NCBI GenBank assembly: GCA_001871685.1
Contig: MNVK01000096.1
Span: 1-40,409, forward strand
DNA from: Nitrospirae bacterium CG1_02_44_142
GTDB taxonomy: Bacteria > Nitrospirota > Thermodesulfovibrionia > Thermodesulfovibrionales > UBA1546
Direction of reading: 5' to 3'
Length of the DNA stretch: 40,409 bases
The notes under the pieces were generated by a model, which did no database searches, had not been told where the DNA came from, and saw only the letters and a list, made by a program, of their open reading frames with translations. This document shows, piece after piece, positions 12,358 to 19,395 of this stretch. Each line of letters starts with the position of its first letter. Position 1 is the first letter of the stretch. Both the position numbers and the translations under genes were made by a program.

Positions 12358-12567
12358 TTATGCAAACTGGAGTTTCTTCTCCATTGGTTTAAGAACATTT
12401 TTAAACATATACGAGGCTTTAAACAGTTCAACGCCTATGAGTTTGCCTTTGCTGTCAAGTTCCATATTCACGCCCGGAGATATTTCTACAACTTCGGCTT
12501 CCTCACCTTCCTTTGTAAGGTAAAGAATATCCTCTTCTTCATCATAAAAGACCTTAAAATCTTCCAT
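12358..12567 (-). CDS. DUF2283-family small protein (putative antitoxin), copy 2
   Basis: 'MEDFKVFYDEEEDILYLTK...MELDSKGKLIGVELFKAS' fits the DUF2283 pattern (YD.e.D.lY...D..G.l.GiEi). The track ORF extends to a TTG at 12603. Confidence 0.6.
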   Translation of the reverse strand: MEDFKVFYDEEEDILYLTKEGEEAEVVEISPGVNMELDSKGKLIGVELFKASYMFKNVLKPMEKKLQFA

Positions 12568-12595
12568 TATATTTTCCCGAAGGGCTGCCGGTATT

Positions 12596-12808
12596 CTAAG
12601 CAACTACTAATTCGACAGGCAAAGGCCTGTCAATACCGACAGTTTTGCTTACATATAGCTTTTCAATCCCTATAGTCTTCCCATTTTTATCTTTTTTAAG
12701 GATAATGCCTTCTCCCGCCTCTTCACATACGACTTCATCCTCGGGATTGCCGAACCAAATATCCATTGTATCTGACTCATTGTTGTAATAAACTTTTACT
12801 TTGTCCAT
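12596..12808 (-). CDS. DUF2283-family small protein (putative antitoxin), copy 1
   Basis: 'VKVYYNNESDTMDIWF....GIILKKDKNGKTIGIEKL'. It overlaps the upstream ORF by 13 nt. Confidence 0.65.
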   Translation of the reverse strand: MDKVKVYYNNESDTMDIWFGNPEDEVVCEEAGEGIILKKDKNGKTIGIEKLYVSKTVGIDRPLPVELVVA

Positions 12809-13107
12809 ACAATTTCTCCTTCCTTTACCTTATCAACAGGATATGCAGTTATTAAAAAACCTTCCTTTCCTGTATGCTTGACAACCACGCAATATAGTTT
12901 ATCAGACTGCTTATAATAAAGAAAGACTTCTTTATCCATTTTGCTTTGTCTTATTTCATCAGGCATCTGCAAAACAAATTTTACAATGTCTTCCTTGTTT
13001 TTCATTATTGGATGTTTTAATGTAGTAAGGTATTCCCAATACTGAACGGTGGTTCTGACTTCAATACTTAGAGGCGTCTTTACAGAGAAATATATTTCAG
13101 ATTTCAT
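12796..13107 (-). CDS. Small toxin-like protein (DUF4258 / barnase-EndoU-RelE-like class that pairs with DUF2283); family not firmly recognised
   Basis: 103 aa. First gene of a 3-gene overlapping operon. It has 'YWEYL...HP' and a C-terminal 'GFLITAYPVDKVKEGEIVW' motif. RBS GGAGGGG lies upstream. Confidence 0.4.
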   Translation of the reverse strand: MKSEIYFSVKTPLSIEVRTTVQYWEYLTTLKHPIMKNKEDIVKFVLQMPDEIRQSKMDKEVFLYYKQSDKLYCVVVKHTGKEGFLITAYPVDKVKEGEIVWTK

Positions 13108-13195
13108 CTTTTCCCCTCCACAATCTCAATCTCCCTGCCCTCTGAATGAGGGATGATGTACAGGCTCTCCTTTTTTTGAAGAACACATGAAAGTA

Positions 13196-13579
13196 TTATT
13201 CTTCTAAATATTTTTGTGGCGTCAGTATCTTAAGGTCAAAAGGCAAATTCTTTATATCCAGAATATCTTTATCGCCGGTTATAAGAATCTTTGCTCTTGC
13301 TGTATGGCAACATTCAAGAAGCATATTATCGTCGGTATCTCTACAGAGTGATAATTTTACAGATGGATAGACAATTCTTGTGTTTGCAACAAAAGAGGCT
13401 ATTCCGGAAATTAACGCCTTTAACTGGATATGGCTTATCTTCCCCTCGGTTTCAAGTTCCAACGGGGTATCACGATACTCTTCAAGAAGGGCTGGGGATA
13501 CATATATGTCTGCCTCTTTAAATGCTTTTCTGACAGTTTTCTCAGGCACACCGCCAAAGGCAAAGGCAGAAACAAGCAC
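13196..13579 (-). CDS. PIN-domain toxin (TIGR00305-like PIN family)
   Basis: '..LVSAFAFGG.P' and 'ITGDKDIL' are characteristic. The GTG start at 13579 omits the in-frame upstream 'KIVIDTG' strand (see findings). Confidence 0.7.
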   Translation of the reverse strand: MLVSAFAFGGVPEKTVRKAFKEADIYVSPALLEEYRDTPLELETEGKISHIQLKALISGIASFVANTRIVYPSVKLSLCRDTDDNMLLECCHTARAKILITGDKDILDIKNLPFDLKILTPQKYLEE

Positions 13580-13598
13580 GCCTGTATCAATAACTATC

Positions 13599-13787
13599 TT
13601 ACTTCTTTTTTCCGTAGATTCTTCTCCTCACAGTTTTAGCTGCTTTATCAATGTCTTTCATTGTCAATGTGGTCTTTTTAAATGCCTCGCCTGCAACTTT
13701 GAAGGCAGCGTTAAGCCTGTCCTGAGGAGAAAGCGCAGAGAGGATAAAATCTTCAGGATTTATTTTTTTTGCTGTAGCAGTGCCCAT
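13599..13787 (-). CDS. Putative cognate antitoxin of the PIN toxin (family not recognised)
   Basis: 62-aa basic ORF immediately upstream of, and overlapping, the PIN reading frame. Strong RBS GAGGGGGTG. Confidence 0.4.
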   Translation of the reverse strand: MGTATAKKINPEDFILSALSPQDRLNAAFKVAGEAFKKTTLTMKDIDKAAKTVRRRIYGKKK

Positions 13788-13958
13788 TTAAACCACCCCC
13801 TCACTTTTATTTCTATATTCTATAATATCACAGTCTATGCTTTTTCTAATCTTCCAACCCAATCTCCGCCCTCTGCACTTCAGATAATCTGCCTGTTCCG
13901 CTTTTTGTGAGGTTTTGGTCAACGAGGCACACGGAGGGCTGTGGTATCATAAAATTAC

Positions 13959-14303
13959 TTACTGCAAGTCTAAAAATCTCTTCAATGCATTTTCCATAGA
14001 GAACAGATCATTAGAAGAAAGGCTGCCTAATTTTTTTAAGACCAGTTGTTGTTCAATAGTTGAAATGGCCGGTTTAATAGCCGATGGTTTTAACAGGCCG
14101 GCAACCTGCCAATCCATTATTAAACATTCTCCTATTCCAATAGTTTTATCTGTCCGACTTGTAATCGCCATAATGACAATATCAGAAGACACATTGTTGT
14201 AGAGATTGGAACTAACAATTACAGATGGACGTTTCTTAGTTGCGATTTGATTACTGAACGGAAATGGGACGAGAATAATATCCCCTCTTTTATAAGCTGT
14301 CAT
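13959..14303 (-). CDS. MazF/PemK-family endoribonuclease toxin
   Basis: Start trimmed to 'MTAYKRGDIILVPFPFS....KKRPSVIVS' (PemK signature). It overlaps the upstream antitoxin by 14 nt. Confidence 0.8.
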   Translation of the reverse strand: MTAYKRGDIILVPFPFSNQIATKKRPSVIVSSNLYNNVSSDIVIMAITSRTDKTIGIGECLIMDWQVAGLLKPSAIKPAISTIEQQLVLKKLGSLSSNDLFSMENALKRFLDLQ

Positions 14304-14487
14304 AGACAGCATCCTCTTTGTTGTCCCAAATCTTCTGGAATGATGCGGTGGACAGTTCTTGAGAGGCACTTACAAGCAGAGTTTTTTCCTTTTTATTTTC
14401 TAAAAATTGTATAAAGTCAAGAACCTCTGCAAGAAGATTTTCAGGAAGCCTATCTATTTCATTTCTAATTATTTCTTTAACTGACAT
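14290..14487 (-). CDS. DUF2281-like antitoxin (MazE-position partner)
   Basis: 65 aa with 'IDRLPENLLAEVLDFIQFLENK'. The same N-terminal motif occurs in the antitoxin at 645-866. Confidence 0.7.
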   Translation of the reverse strand: MSVKEIIRNEIDRLPENLLAEVLDFIQFLENKKEKTLLVSASQELSTASFQKIWDNKEDAVYDSL

Positions 14488-14854: not shown

Positions 14855-17800
14855 TCACGCAAACAACTCCCCCTGTAATTTCTGCAAAATTTTGTTCTGC
14901 AATTTCTGGCTGGTGATGGAGGAGATGTGGTCGGAGATTATTCTGTCTATTTTTTCTTTAAGGGCTTTGAGTTCTGGAAGGATTTTTGAGATGTATAATT
15001 CGTCTTTTGGTATCTTTATTTCCTCAAGCCCTGACTCAAGCCAAACCTTTAAAAACTCTGCTTCTGCTTCACTTGAGCAGTCTATGTGGTCTTTACCAGA
15101 AAAAATACGCCAGCCAAAGAGTTCGTTTTTGATTTCTACCCCCCTCTTTCCCCCCTTGCTAAGGGGGGATGTAAGGGGGGCCAGATGAAAGAGCTTAACG
15201 GTTTTAAGGTTTTTCTGATTAAGGATTTTTTCTCTGTAGAAATGTCCAAGAAGTTTATCTCCAAGCTTATCTTTAATTGTCTTTGTTAAAAGTTCAACAT
15301 CAACACCCTCCGTTGTCTTTCCTTTTTTATCAACGCTTCTTGCCTTTTCTATCCTTGATTTCACAAGGTCAACAACTGCACGATAGACCTCAAGCTGTTC
15401 GTCATCGGTTAAACCAAGAATATCGCCCATGATTATTTTGTCCAGTTCACGGCGGTCAGGCTTGACTTTATCGAGAGAAACTTCATCAGATGAATAAGCC
15501 TTTAAATCTTCAAATATGGATTTTATTTCAGGAGAGGGATATTTTATAGCTAGTTTTTTGAGTTTTAACCGCCCATCCTTAGAGAAATTTTTTATAACTG
15601 GAGTTTTTTCAAAATCTGTGCCTTTTATATCAATAGGCCCTGTCCCACCGCCATAGGTTCTGCTGTAAAATTCTTTAAATAACATGCTCACTGTAGAAAG
15701 TAAAAAACAAAGCAATGGCAGAACATCACGCTTTCTTTTTGGTTTTATCTCCATAAAACTGCAATCAGCCTGAAACATATACTTATTTGAAATCACTAAT
15801 TGTCTATCTGTGTGAACTCTTGGATAAAAGATCGGCCACGTTTCTCTATATTCAAGTTCATACCATCTATTACGAGATGAACATGTTGACCTGTTATGAA
15901 AACCCTTCCTCTCCCCTTGTTTGATATAAGAGAGAACCTTTTTGCTTTTTAGTTTCTCTTTGTCTTTGTTTATGAAAAGAACAATCTTTGATAAATCTTC
16001 AGGAGATACAACAACCTTTTTTGCTTCCCTCGGGCTTACAAGCACTCTATTCGGCGCCCATTCATCTTTGTCATTTTTATGCATCCAGAATTCTTTTTCA
16101 ATTCCTCTCTCTTTTATTTCTTCTTCTGTCAGATAGAAAAACTCATTTACACCTGTTGTAAATCCTCTCCTGATATCCGCTATCTTTTTTAATGGCGCAA
16201 GTTTATCCTTACCCTTTTCAAGAATCTTAAAAAATATCTCCGGAGCCCTCAGATACTTGCCCCATTTTGAGCCTGTATATTTTCTTTCTTCTGTGTCAAA
16301 ACCTTCTTCCCACAGCTCGCTCTGTTTTTTGGGATAAATTCTTAATTCATCGTTCTGGTAAAAGTCATTGTGATAGAGAATTGTTTTAATAAGGTTTCCA
16401 ATGGCGTCAAGCCTTTGTTTCTGTTTTTCCCACATGTCGTGGGCAGGCGGGATAAAATGTCTTAAGGGTTTTAAGAGATATGCAAATCTGACCAGATTTT
16501 CATCTCTTTCTTTCTGATATTTGCACTTCTCAAGGATTATTATGCAGGTATTGATGTCAGCATCTTCAAACCAGCGTTCAACTTTGGATTCAATGATTGC
16601 AATGATTTTATAGTTCTTGAGAAATAGTTCTTGAAGCCCTTTCCCGTAATCCACATCCATCCACGAATTTGAGACAATAAAGCCGAAACGGCCGCCATCT
16701 TTCAGAAACTTTGTCCCATGCACAAAGAAATAGGCATGAATGCCAGCCCTCTTTGAGATATCTGCAAGCTTCCGCCCGCCATAAATAAGAGCTTTCTCGA
16801 TAAGATTTTTCTTGTAACCGGCTTTTTCAGTAATTTCGGCTATTTCTTCCTGCCTTGTGTAAGGCGGATTGCCTACGATGCAGTCAAACCACCGCGGATG
16901 AGTTATCTCTTTTTGCTCCGTGCCTAATGTTTTAGCCTTTAGTTTTCTCCATCTTTCAGTCAGCTCAACACCACCATCAGGTTTCACCAATAGATTGAAA
17001 AAGTCTTCCCGTGCAATGTTCGGATAATTTTTAATAACACCCAAGTCATTGATTGCAAGGTTAATGGTTGCAAGGTGAGCAGGGAATTTTGCTATATCCA
17101 CACCCCACAGGCTTTCAAGAATTTCCTGATGTGCAAGCCTGTTATTCATAAGTTTCTTGTGCTGATATGCCCTGACGAGAAATGTGCCTGCACCGCATGA
17201 GGGATCTATAACCTTGTCGTCTTCATGTTTCAGGCAGAACTTTAAGATCAGGTCAACAACATCTGGGCTTGTGAAATATTGCCCCAAAATATGGCGCTCT
17301 TCCTGAGGGATCAGCTTTTCAAATATTCTTCCGATAATGTCAAAGCCGATTTTTGAAAAATCATATTCCTTTATGATAGCTACAAGTCCTTTAATCTCTT
17401 CAACAACTTCTCTGCTATCGGGGAATGCTATCTGGTCAATAAAATCAGTGCTGTAAATAGTTTCGTAGTCAATGTTATCCGTTATATAATTGAAATACGT
17501 TTGTTGCAAGATTTTCTGAAGCTGTCCCCCTGCAGTTAAATCATCAGGGATGAGCAGTGAGGCAAGGTTTGTATACTTTGTTTTTAGAGCCTGATAAAAA
17601 AGCAGCTTATTTATGAGCAAATACGCTGTCTGCCGTGCTACCTTGTCGAAATCTTCTTCCTGAGCTGCAAAGCTCCACTGTTGTTCAATAAACCAGATTT
17701 TGAGTTTCTTGGCAAAGTCAGAATCTTTATGAAAACTATCTCTTATAATATTTCTATAAAAACGAGATAAGCGCAGATTCTTCACATGAAGCTTTAATAT

Positions 17801-18364
17801 TAAAAGCTCGTCAATAGGTAAAAGATGTTCCGGTTTTTTGCCGGTATGGATATCAATGAGCTCAAACAGGAATTTCTCAAGACCCTTGATTATCGCACTC
17901 TTGAATCTTGGTTCTTCAATATTGTTCAAGTCCTCTATTGTAGAAAGGTCATATATCCCTGCAATCTGGATTGACTCATCGGACTGTTTGTTAACTTCTT
18001 CCGTTTTATACAAAATAAGCTTCTGGAAGTTTGAGCATCCAAAATATTTGGCTTTTCTTTGCACTGCCTTTTCCCATGCTGGCTTTTTGAGTTCCTTAAA
18101 ATCAAATGGGTCAAAATAAGGCGGCTTAAGCTCAATAACGCATAGGGCATCGGTACTTTGAGGTGATTTATAAATGATGATATCAGGCTGTTTTCTGTCT
18201 GCGCCTACGGTTTCCTGTTCTGAAAAACCGATTGGTAAGGATTGCTCTTTGATTATCTGATTTATCCATTCAACAGCTTTTTGATTGGCGGTGCGCTCGG
18301 TCTTATTGCTTGAAGTATCATAAGGCGAAGATAATTTTATAGGCTTTCCTCTAATCTTAGACAT
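14855..18364 (-). CDS. Type IIG-like restriction-modification enzyme (N-terminal PD-(D/E)xK nuclease + gamma-class N6-adenine DNA methyltransferase + target-recognition domain)
   Basis: 1169 aa. The N-terminus 'QPDIIIY...CVIELKPP...CSNFQKLILY' resembles the HSDR_N/PD-ExK motif. MTase motif I is 'VIDPSCGAGTFLV' and motif IV is 'VGNPPYTRQEE'. An Eco57I/TaqI-type TRD motif 'RRGFTTGVNEFFYL' is present. The gene is visibly more A+T-rich than its neighbours and carries an in-frame repeat insertion at 15139-15180. Confidence 0.8.
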   Translation of the reverse strand: MSKIRGKPIKLSSPYDTSSNKTERTANQKAVEWINQIIKEQSLPIGFSEQETVGADRKQPDIIIYKSPQSTDALCVIELKPPYFDPFDFKELKKPAWEKAVQRKAKYFGCSNFQKLILYKTEEVNKQSDESIQIAGIYDLSTIEDLNNIEEPRFKSAIIKGLEKFLFELIDIHTGKKPEHLLPIDELLILKLHVKNLRLSRFYRNIIRDSFHKDSDFAKKLKIWFIEQQWSFAAQEEDFDKVARQTAYLLINKLLFYQALKTKYTNLASLLIPDDLTAGGQLQKILQQTYFNYITDNIDYETIYSTDFIDQIAFPDSREVVEEIKGLVAIIKEYDFSKIGFDIIGRIFEKLIPQEERHILGQYFTSPDVVDLILKFCLKHEDDKVIDPSCGAGTFLVRAYQHKKLMNNRLAHQEILESLWGVDIAKFPAHLATINLAINDLGVIKNYPNIAREDFFNLLVKPDGGVELTERWRKLKAKTLGTEQKEITHPRWFDCIVGNPPYTRQEEIAEITEKAGYKKNLIEKALIYGGRKLADISKRAGIHAYFFVHGTKFLKDGGRFGFIVSNSWMDVDYGKGLQELFLKNYKIIAIIESKVERWFEDADINTCIIILEKCKYQKERDENLVRFAYLLKPLRHFIPPAHDMWEKQKQRLDAIGNLIKTILYHNDFYQNDELRIYPKKQSELWEEGFDTEERKYTGSKWGKYLRAPEIFFKILEKGKDKLAPLKKIADIRRGFTTGVNEFFYLTEEEIKERGIEKEFWMHKNDKDEWAPNRVLVSPREAKKVVVSPEDLSKIVLFINKDKEKLKSKKVLSYIKQGERKGFHNRSTCSSRNRWYELEYRETWPIFYPRVHTDRQLVISNKYMFQADCSFMEIKPKRKRDVLPLLCFLLSTVSMLFKEFYSRTYGGGTGPIDIKGTDFEKTPVIKNFSKDGRLKLKKLAIKYPSPEIKSIFEDLKAYSSDEVSLDKVKPDRRELDKIIMGDILGLTDDEQLEVYRAVVDLVKSRIEKARSVDKKGKTTEGVDVELLTKTIKDKLGDKLLGHFYREKILNQKNLKTVKLFHLAPLTSPLSKGGKRGVEIKNELFGWRIFSGKDHIDCSSEAEAEFLKVWLESGLEEIKIPKDELYISKILPELKALKEKIDRIISDHISSITSQKLQNKILQKLQGELFA
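15139..15180. repeat. Nested C6/G6 double-hairpin element, copy D (inside the Type IIG CDS, exactly 42 nt)
   Basis: CCCCCC-TCTTT-CCCCCC-TTGCTAA-GGGGGG-ATGTAA-GGGGGG. The minus-strand reading across and flanking the element is LAPLTSPLSKGGKRGV. Confidence 0.85.
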
Positions 18365-18653
18365 CTTCTTTATCTTTCAATACCTGATTAACAATTCTTC
18401 TTGCAATCTCAAAGGCTGCTGCAATCCTGATAATCTTTACATCACCAAGCCCTTTGAATTGGAGAAATTTTTCAAGAGGCTGGTTTGCCATGCCTTTGAA
18501 TGAGCCGAACTTATTGAGAATCTCTTCTGCAACTTCCTCTGCCGATTTTCCTTTTGTGCCTGTGGAAACGAGAATTGACAACAGTTCGGCGTCTGTCAAA
18601 GATTCAGCGCCGAGTTCTCTAAGCTTTCCGCCGGGATGTTCCCAAGTTTTCAT
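18357..18653 (-). CDS. RadC N-terminal (UPF0758_N, helix-hairpin-helix) domain protein lacking the JAB/MPN domain
   Basis: 98 aa. 'KLRELGAESLTDAELLSILVSTGTKGKSAEEVAEEIL.KFGS..G.......L...KGLGDVKIIRIAAAFEIARR' matches RadC N-termini. No HNHPSG-type JAB motif follows. The stop overlaps the Type IIG start in the 8-nt sequence ATGTCTAA. Confidence 0.7.
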   Translation of the reverse strand: MKTWEHPGGKLRELGAESLTDAELLSILVSTGTKGKSAEEVAEEILNKFGSFKGMANQPLEKFLQFKGLGDVKIIRIAAAFEIARRIVNQVLKDKEDV

Positions 18654-18843
18654 AATTTATTCTCTCTCTAATTTTCCCCCTCAATATTAATCTTTATAGC
18701 AAAGAAATTCAATAGCGCCATAGTTCCGCAGAGCCATAGCTCGGATGCGAGTAAGCGGGGAAGCAATAAAGTTTCAGAGTATCAAAGAGCAATATAGTAG
18801 AAGGGTAAAAGTCCCATAGTCCGCTGGCGTGAAAACCGCAAAT

Positions 18844-19395
18844 CTAACGCGCTCTCTTGCGCCCGGATGCCCCGTATCTCGCCGTGCTTTCCCTGACCTC
18901 AAATCCTATTTTCCTTTTCTTCGGTTCCGGCGGTGTCATGAGTTGGCGGATTGCATCAAACACGACCTTGAACTGAGTGTCATATTTCTTTTCAATATCA
19001 TCAAGCCTTCGGGCAAGGTCTTTATTTGCGGCTATCATTTCTCGCAGTTTTACGAATGCCCGCATTATGGCAATGTTGACCTGAACTGCTCGCTCACTGT
19101 TGAGAACGCTTGAAAGCATTGCCACGCCCTGCTCAGTGAAGGCATAAGGAAAAGAGCCGCCAAAATACTTCTTATGTGGTATCACATTTTGTGATACCAG
19201 CCATTCGGCCTCGGAATCTTTCAGTTGGAACATGAAATCTTCAGGGAATCTGTCGATATTCCTTTTTACAGCTTGGTTTAATGCTCTTGTTTCTACCCCA
19301 TATAATTCTGCTAAATGTATGCTTAATATAATCTTCTGCCCGCGTATCAGATAGATTTTCTTCTCAACCACATCTTCTGGAATTAATTCTTTCAT
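18844..19395 (-). CDS. ORF6N (KilA-N-like) DNA-binding domain protein
   Basis: '[45 protein letters not shown]' and '[37 protein letters not shown]' are the classic ORF6N signature. The protein has a coiled-coil and a basic C-terminal tail. Confidence 0.8.

Follow-up and report, generated by a model that had tools for sequence, protein, structure and literature searches.

The window analysed here, a 40,409-nucleotide (nt) stretch of contig MNVK01000096.1 from Nitrospirae bacterium CG1_02_44_142, carries on its minus strand two overlapping genes that recur together across more than 20 phyla. The first encodes a stand-alone protein of 98 amino acids (aa) homologous to the N-terminal domain of RadC, here called RadC-N; the second encodes a 1169-aa single-chain Type IIG restriction-modification (R-M) enzyme, here called IIG. 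We lean towards the view that the two genes make up one R-M module and that RadC-N, with a predicted double helix-hairpin-helix, or (HhH)2, fold, serves the Type IIG enzyme as a DNA-binding accessory subunit. A description of the RadC-N/Type IIG pairing was not found in the searchable literature, which does not cover REBASE. The pair is made up of the following parts.

18357-18653, minus strand: RadC-N gene, encoding the 98-aa stand-alone UPF0758_N protein (PF20582 match).
14855-18364, minus strand: gene for the 1169-aa single-chain Type IIG R-M enzyme (BpuSI/Eco57I-like).
18357-18364, minus strand: overlap of the RadC-N stop and the IIG start, 8 nt, ATGTCTAA, read directly from the sequence.
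17825-18274, minus strand: nuclease domain of the PD-(D/E)xK type, approximately aa 31-180 of IIG, with catalytic D61, E78 and K80.
16505-17344, minus strand: gamma-class N6-adenine methyltransferase (MTase) domain, approximately aa 341-620 of IIG, with Eco57I and N6_Mtase matches.
15575-16504, minus strand: putative target-recognition region, approximately aa 621-930 of IIG, with an M_Eco57I_C match just below threshold.
14858-15574, minus strand: C-terminal extension, approximately aa 931-1169 of IIG, with conserved columns and no Pfam match.

How regularly are the two genes found side by side? Eighty genomic loci were fetched with the alignment of the large protein (226 IIG relatives were left unfetched) and a second sample of 80 metagenomic loci with the small protein. 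In the fetched loci, tblastn was used to locate all three proteins of a candidate three-gene module put forward in a first-pass annotation of this DNA, the third being an ORF6N-domain protein. RadC-N lies directly upstream of the enzyme, on the same strand, in 75 of the 80 enzyme-seeded loci. Three of the five exceptions begin at a contig end, so that 75 of 77 loci with upstream DNA have RadC-N. This figure covers enzyme relatives of at least ~48% identity, and the two true misses, L072 and L080, stand at about that lower limit as the most distant ones; the enzyme N-terminus is truncated in one of the two. RadC-N is truncated in one locus, L001. The pair loci span more than 20 phyla, including bacteria of the candidate phyla radiation (CPR) and archaea; the source taxa are Nitrospirota, Desulfobacterota, Chloroflexota, Planctomycetota, Elusimicrobia, Ignavibacteria, Bacteroidota, Firmicutes, Caldisericum, Spirochaetota, several CPR phyla and two archaea. 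The genes that flank the pair are unrelated between loci, and neighbourhood clustering of ~140 loci found no third gene conserved around it. The pairing thus recurs across taxa, and the adjacency in the window does not appear fortuitous.

The geometry is also conserved. Reading frames overlap in 102 of 133 RadC-N/IIG pairs, mostly by 8-20 nt, and the small open reading frame (ORF) has 95-113 aa in nearly all of the 133 loci with both genes. In the window, RadC-N ends with the codons GAA GAT GTC TAA and IIG starts, in another frame, with ATG TCT AAG, so the enzyme start is embedded in the stop region of the small gene, as had been noted at first reading. This 8-nt overlap is a likely site of translational coupling. 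In addition, the pairwise identities of RadC-N and IIG correlate (r = 0.69). Co-occurrence, geometry and correlated divergence together point to a unit that is inherited and transferred as one.

The pair is also present in a cultured organism with a complete genome, Dissulfurispira thermophila (L162; AP022873.1, 694142-714441), with a 4-nt overlap; here an IS21-family element (rve + IstB) interrupts the enzyme gene. The D. thermophila pair is found amid housekeeping genes (an argB-like kinase gene, hslUV-like genes, ileS and lspA), and a second Type ISP-like methylase gene is situated ~10 kb upstream of it. Does the pair come from a phage or a plasmid? Such an origin is not evident from searches of either: viral contigs gave only one weak match, and plasmids gave only relatives of the enzyme at 25-34% identity and no short RadC-N.

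The 98-aa protein matches the Pfam family PF20582 (UPF0758_N) with an E-value of 5.9e-19 over profile positions 7-77 of 77. In NCBIfam it aligns to residues 3-89 only of the 212-residue RadC model, and with 78.5 and 64.8 bits it falls well short of the RadC cut-offs of 180 and 133.85. The RadC-type JAB domain (PF04002) is not present, as the chain stops at residue 98. Full-length RadC proteins show 40-48% identity to it over ~90 residues. An exhaustive profile search finds its closest relatives among short proteins of 90-130 aa, with canonical RadC (~225 aa) only at 42-45% identity; the RadC-N profile search gave 340 clusters with E at or below 1e-10. The short proteins constitute a tight clade of their own with a W-x-HPGGKLRE signature. 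Could the gene be the front part of a radC that was broken by insertion of the enzyme gene? This was rejected, as eight full-length RadC queries match the window at 18360-18653 only, which leaves no JAB remnant, and as the short form is a conserved family in its own right. A related concern of the first-pass annotation, that the 98-aa ORF is a truncated relic without expression, fails on similar grounds: the 95-113-aa family is conserved, the ratio of non-synonymous to synonymous substitution rates (dN/dS) is 0.076 and there is no JAB remnant, with expression deduced from the conservation. The small gene is thus complete, and purifying selection on it is strong.

The AlphaFold model of the 98-aa protein is all helices, with a predicted local distance difference test score (pLDDT) of 93.4. 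Its best fold matches are the (HhH)2 modules of XPF/ERCC1, UvrC, MutY/EndoIII and Topo V, and a search of solved structures by sequence likewise returned Topo V HhH repeats. Conserved residues include the hairpin glycines G32 and G68, one in each hairpin, and K67/K73. There is no helix-turn-helix match to the protein in Pfam. The predicted fold is thus an (HhH)2 DNA-binding fold. Four RadC-N proteins of ~190-215 aa (P0243, P0247, P0254 and P0268) consist of two RadC-N domains in tandem, a hint that RadC-N may act as a dimer. One other protein, P0288 (711 aa), has RadC-N fused to apparently hydrophobic, possibly membrane-spanning segments, as seen by eye, and to a long TPR array; it is an unrelated architecture for this domain.

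The 1169-aa protein is an intact Type IIG enzyme with nuclease and MTase in one chain. In Pfam it matches Eco57I (3.6e-22), N6_Mtase (1.4e-21) and MmeI_Mtase, and M_Eco57I_C at residues 725-908 with 26.7 bits against a cut-off of 27; of the best 120 IIG homologues listed, nearly all have a precomputed PF22837 match. The PADLOC model REase_MTase_IIG matches over residues 57-926 (9.1e-52). Among 59 homologues, the nuclease residues D61, E78, K80 and P82 are invariant. So are D387, P388, G391, G393, T394, F395 and L396 of motif I (DPSCGAGTFL, 387-396) and N499, P500 and P501 of motif IV (NPPY, 499-502), with C390 and Y502 at least 90% conserved. The PD-ExK N-terminus and gamma-class motifs described at first reading are confirmed by this conservation, together with the structural match to BpuSI given below, and the invariance of D61, E78 and K80 shows that the protein is not an MTase-only orphan with a degenerate nuclease.

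At the structural level, the nuclease domain is modelled as a helix-strand-strand-helix-strand-strand core (pLDDT 80-93), and the first 17 residues of the enzyme are predicted to be disordered. Foldseek ranks BpuSI first (3S1S; E 9.5e-18 over 1094 columns), followed by CamA, M.BseCI, DrdV and PglX, and the fold aligns with BpuSI, CamA and M.BseCI through the recognition region. A search of solved structures by sequence gave only Type I HsdM-like and M.BseCI methyltransferase cores. The recognition region and the extreme N-terminus are among the most variable parts of the enzyme. Of interest is the extension formed by the last ~240 residues (aa 931-1169), which has many conserved columns, continues beyond the length of BpuSI and has no Pfam match. 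It also has the top partial mirror-tree correlation with RadC-N (0.44, with MTase identity controlled; a crude measure). On this covariation, the extension is a candidate contact region for RadC-N.

Is RadC-N confined to this one enzyme family? In two loci (L081 and L082), RadC-N is 95% identical to that of the window, and the next gene, again with an 8-nt overlap, encodes a different enzyme of 768 aa (L081:389-2695), which has an N6_N4_Mtase domain and a weak HSDR_N_2 nuclease match below the Pfam cut-off. The homology between the window and L081 consists of RadC-N and only the first ~17 codons of the next gene; the upstream sequence differs. The window IIG protein and the 768-aa enzyme have in common the peptide MSKI.GK.IK.SSPYD, which other RadC-N partners lack. 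Might this be a docking peptide? The nucleotide alignment suggests, instead, a recent recombination junction. More distant stand-alone RadC-N proteins, only 40-48% identical, also precede MTase-bearing proteins: an 859-aa protein with N6_N4_Mtase and NmeDI_C (L167:5308-7887), an N6_N4_Mtase protein (L169:590-1636) and a distant gamma-type enzyme (L165:1199-2323). Finally, P0331 (L173:5001-6551), P0358 and P0300 are natural fusions of RadC-N with beta-class DNA methyltransferases, the fused domain being N6_N4_Mtase in P0331 and P0358. P0331 adjoins a 62-aa fragment of a MjaV-type restriction endonuclease.

These links bear on one alternative, that RadC-N is an antitoxin-like inhibitor or chaperone that restrains the nuclease until host DNA has been methylated, the enzyme alone being toxic. 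A small upstream gene overlapping the gene of a potentially toxic nuclease is indeed a toxin-antitoxin (TA)-like layout, and there is an asymmetry of the kind an inhibitor would produce: intact RadC-N is missing in three of the 77 loci (absent in two, truncated in one), and RadC-N alone is not rare. Antitoxins, however, usually evolve fast, whereas RadC-N has a dN/dS of 0.076 and a mean pairwise identity of 0.70, compared with 0.72 for the MTase domain, 0.55 for the nuclease and 0.51 for the recognition region of IIG. RadC-N is also found with plain methyltransferases that have no Pfam-detectable nuclease domain (P0331, P0358 and the L169 protein; the L167 protein is not counted as nuclease-free, as its NmeDI_C match may mean a nuclease part). 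Both DNA-binding hairpins are conserved, which fits a role directed at DNA, and the TA cassettes found between the two genes in some loci, described below, would upset a tight ratio of inhibitor to enzyme. We consider an antitoxin-like role very improbable.

How might an accessory subunit act? The IIG enzyme would methylate host sites and cut unmodified foreign DNA. RadC-N and IIG would be made together from one operon, usually by translational coupling. RadC-N, probably dimeric, might contact the DNA backbone irrespective of sequence and load or hold the IIG enzyme on DNA; alternatively, it might pair two enzyme molecules and so allow cleavage of both strands. The proposal draws on the way XPF/ERCC1-type and UvrC nucleases use their (HhH)2 modules. 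For RadC-N we infer a physical interaction with the enzyme, binding to DNA, dimerisation and an effect on cleavage or methylation.

Could this extend to R-M enzymes in general? A broader idea, which we offer tentatively and hold to be possible rather than probable, is that stand-alone RadC-N proteins make up a general class of (HhH)2 subunits, so far unrecognised, that load single-chain R-M enzymes and DNA methyltransferases on DNA or dimerise them. The architectures served would be gamma-class Type IIG enzymes, enzymes with HSDR_N and a beta-class MTase, and beta-class enzymes with an NmeDI-type C-terminus, and these enzymes would need the small subunit for efficient restriction.

Several points weigh against an accessory subunit. 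To our knowledge, the characterised Type IIG enzymes BpuSI, MmeI and DrdV work without an accessory protein. The fold-match E-values of the 98-aa protein are weak, 0.3 and above, although weak values are expected for a small domain, and the whole IIG model is only moderately confident (pLDDT 70.5; predicted template modelling score 0.44). Almost every locus comes from a metagenome assembly, and a heuristic picked the start codons. A gap of over 200 nt separates the two genes in 22 of the 133 pairs, and an inserted co-oriented cassette, usually of TA genes, was found in all 18 of the 18 wide-gap pairs that were examined. Nine RadC-N loci with enough downstream DNA are without this IIG family; two of these (L081 and L082) have the different R-M enzyme described above, and seven (L091, L094, L102, L114, L140, L141 and L155), each with at least 1.5 kb of downstream DNA, have no R-M enzyme there. 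The dN/dS of the nine IIG-lacking RadC-N genes is 0.044, a value from only 10 comparisons with dS near saturation. This suggests that orphan RadC-N either has a function independent of this enzyme or has its partner elsewhere in the genome. Coupling of RadC-N and IIG is therefore common, not obligatory. Coupled translation, which the first-pass annotation had deduced from the overlap, would apply to most pairs; its description of RadC-N as an obligate partner in fixed stoichiometry is too strong, given the 22 widely spaced pairs and the nine RadC-N genes without this IIG family.

The inserts between RadC-N and IIG (loci L001, L004, L008, L021, L037, L077, L084, L088, L095, L099 and L104-L106) encode ParE, HicAB, HicA-HicB with a weak SecB-like ORF, PIN, PBECR2/DUF4258 with DUF2283, and DUF3800. 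The same families are also found downstream of IIG in the window (12358-14487). An integron-like cassette array was considered and rejected, as the spacers between the inserted TA cassettes are too short for attC sites. In the seven R-M-free loci the next genes are HicAB, PIN, PHD-like, AbiEi-like, Fic, un-annotated ORFs or the core genes rpe-fmt-def, and in a shorter locus (L147) an MNT-type nucleotidyltransferase gene lies directly downstream of RadC-N. One 212-aa protein, P0252 (L170:6001-6639), joins RadC-N in frame with a segment like IIG residues 955-1040, and its type is present on at least four contigs. Is it a Rosetta-stone fusion? It was not accepted as such: there is no enzyme gene nearby, and it is taken as an in-frame deletion relic of the pair.

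What lies upstream of RadC-N? In the window, the promoter candidate TTGAAT-17-TAATAT (18712-18684) agrees with the consensus at 8 of 12 positions, no better than shuffled sequence. Among related loci, 45 of 150 have a consensus-like promoter, matching at 10 of 12 positions or more, 60-74 nt upstream of RadC-N, against 11 of 150 shuffles. It reads TTGACC-N17-TATAAAAT and then TAGGC, and is present in ~30% of loci (L004, L005, L009, L086, L091-L093, L097, L099, L100, L107 and others).

Does RadC-N, then, have anything to do with the enzyme? It could be a gene in its own right, with a strong promoter, and the mark of a defence/TA hotspot where IIG is a cargo that uses the promoter. The promoter in ~30% of loci accords with this, as do the ParE, HicAB, PIN, PBECR2/DUF2283 and DUF3800 cassettes that directly follow RadC-N, co-oriented, in many loci, and the HicAB, PIN, PHD-like, AbiEi-like, Fic, MNT or core genes that IIG-free RadC-N precedes. 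Orphan RadC-N genes are intact (dN/dS 0.044), and the end of the window/L081 homology ~17 codons into the next gene resembles a cargo-swap junction. Yet a hotspot leaves unexplained why RadC-N accompanies IIG in 75 of the 77 loci that have upstream DNA, in more than 20 phyla and amid unrelated flanks; why the divergence of the two proteins is correlated (r = 0.69); and why RadC-N is fused to MTases and, in distant forms, precedes methyltransferase enzymes. As a full account of the pair, we regard it as unlikely. It is compatible with an accessory role, as a strong-promoter operon can also collect TA cassettes. The RadC-N gene also stands at the head of a site, close to a promoter, at which genes of the island gather, and its role may go further than this enzyme.

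The upstream region also bears on a third possibility, that RadC-N is a transcriptional controller, like the C proteins of R-M systems, that binds near its own promoter and sets the level or timing of the enzyme in a new host. The gene order is like that of classical C-R operons, in which the nuclease gene follows, and overlaps, a small gene for a DNA-binding protein, and the promoter region conserved in ~30% of loci, with its TAGGC, might hold a regulator site. The fusions do not exclude control, as some methyltransferases carry fused N-terminal autoregulatory DNA-binding regions. A 7-mer enrichment scan of 130 non-redundant upstream regions, 25 of which were also read by eye, yielded A+T-rich words of promoter type and nothing else, and no palindromic operator stood out; the scan was not a dedicated search for inverted repeats, and a degenerate operator could be missed. 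Moreover, C proteins have a helix-turn-helix, whereas (HhH)2 folds typically bind the backbone non-specifically. The window and L081 have different upstream sequences even though RadC-N is 95% identical, and a delay of nuclease relative to methylase is impossible when both are in one polypeptide. A controller seems to us quite unlikely. Of these readings, we continue to favour the accessory subunit.

The remaining features of the region are as follows.

18844-19395, minus strand: ORF6N-domain gene, encoding 183 aa (PF10543 match).
18654-18843, minus strand: spacer of 190 nt between ORF6N and RadC-N, with a candidate weak promoter and a purine-rich ribosome-binding region.
12358-14487, minus strand: TA array downstream of IIG, with two DUF2283 genes, PIN_3, PemK/MazF and DUF2281.

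The ORF list puts the ORF6N, RadC-N and IIG genes on the minus strand, in agreement with the first-pass annotation, and the 190-nt distance of ORF6N from RadC-N is as it had reported. Does ORF6N belong to the module, as was then proposed? The ORF6N protein matches PF10543 (2.5e-32 in Pfam) and, over residues 2-163, the PADLOC model PDC-S05 (PDLC04856; 1.4e-55). Neighbourhood clustering places an ORF6N gene near the RadC-N/IIG pair in only ~6 of 140 loci, and the three-gene module is rejected on this count. According to a preprint, one PDC-S05 member, alone, protects Escherichia coli against T7, T5 and T4, with T7 and T5 plating lowered ~1000-fold. The ORF6N gene is thus an independent single-gene defence candidate in the same island and not a member of the pair; its likeness to PDC-S05 concerns this gene only, as there is no consistent linkage to the RadC-N/IIG pair. 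The PADLOC comparison that had been suggested gave matches for IIG and ORF6N; PADLOC has no model for the 98-aa protein.

The module lies in an A+T-richer block between TA cassettes and tldD, a point on which the G+C profile and the Pfam matches of the flanks agree with the first reading: G+C is 0.36-0.42 across ~12-19 kb and 0.44-0.49 in the flanking core genes. Equally A+T-rich stretches also exist elsewhere in the window. The core-gene flank consists of TldD, LpxC and a PNP_UDP_1-family phosphorylase, which is probably a methylthioadenosine (MTA) phosphorylase. The TA array is island context and is outside the module. In it, the PemK/MazF-type toxin ORF (13959-14369) overlaps the DUF2281 antitoxin-like ORF (14290-14487) by 80 nt as listed, and the true start of the toxin ORF is probably further downstream than in that listing. 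Scans of the whole window for tRNA and Rfam families found nothing.

What would a small partner of a Type IIG enzyme mean? Annotation pipelines, defence-system finders and users of these enzymes as reagents treat Type IIG enzymes as self-contained single proteins. If a widespread family of them relies on such a partner, expression of the large gene alone in a heterologous host may fail or mislead, the models of defence finders miss a component (PADLOC being a case in point), and one could test for a new way in which R-M enzymes are helped to find their targets or to cut both strands. RadC is among the most widespread bacterial proteins of unknown function, and the pairing gives a concrete context for its N-terminal domain. 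Should RadC-N serve R-M enzymes at large, this would be the first functional handle on the RadC N-terminus, as a portable DNA-targeting module placed on JAB or on R-M enzymes. The RadC-N/IIG junction is, in addition, a recurrent landing site of TA cassettes and offers a tractable case of defence-island growth.

How does the pair compare with known systems? Like the Type IIG enzymes BpuSI and Eco57I, IIG has in one chain an N-terminal PD-(D/E)xK nuclease, a gamma-class MTase (DPxCGxGxFL, NPPY) and a probable C-terminal recognition region. It is, however, only 13% identical to BpuSI, and its conserved C-terminus is longer by ~240 residues. The usual description of characterised Type IIG enzymes is that they act alone, whereas this family is almost always preceded by the gene of a 98-aa (HhH)2 protein. 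That protein is homologous to the N-terminal HhH domain of RadC/UPF0758 (Escherichia coli YicR-type, ~225 aa), but it is without the JAB domain, and its genomic partner is a methyltransferase or restriction enzyme. In C-protein R-M operons such as C.PvuII-PvuIIR, a small DNA-binding gene likewise lies upstream of the endonuclease gene and overlaps it. C proteins, in contrast, are helix-turn-helix dimers that act on palindromic C-boxes; RadC-N has the predicted (HhH)2 fold, and here nuclease and methylase are in one chain.

Nucleases combined with an (HhH)2 module are also found in XPF/ERCC1-Mus81 and in the C-terminal half of UvrC. In these nucleases the module binds DNA non-specifically, and in XPF/ERCC1 it mediates dimerisation. 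There, the module is fused to structure-recognising repair nucleases, whereas RadC-N is a chain of its own whose neighbour is a presumably sequence-specific R-M enzyme. What they share is a possible mode of action, not membership of a family.

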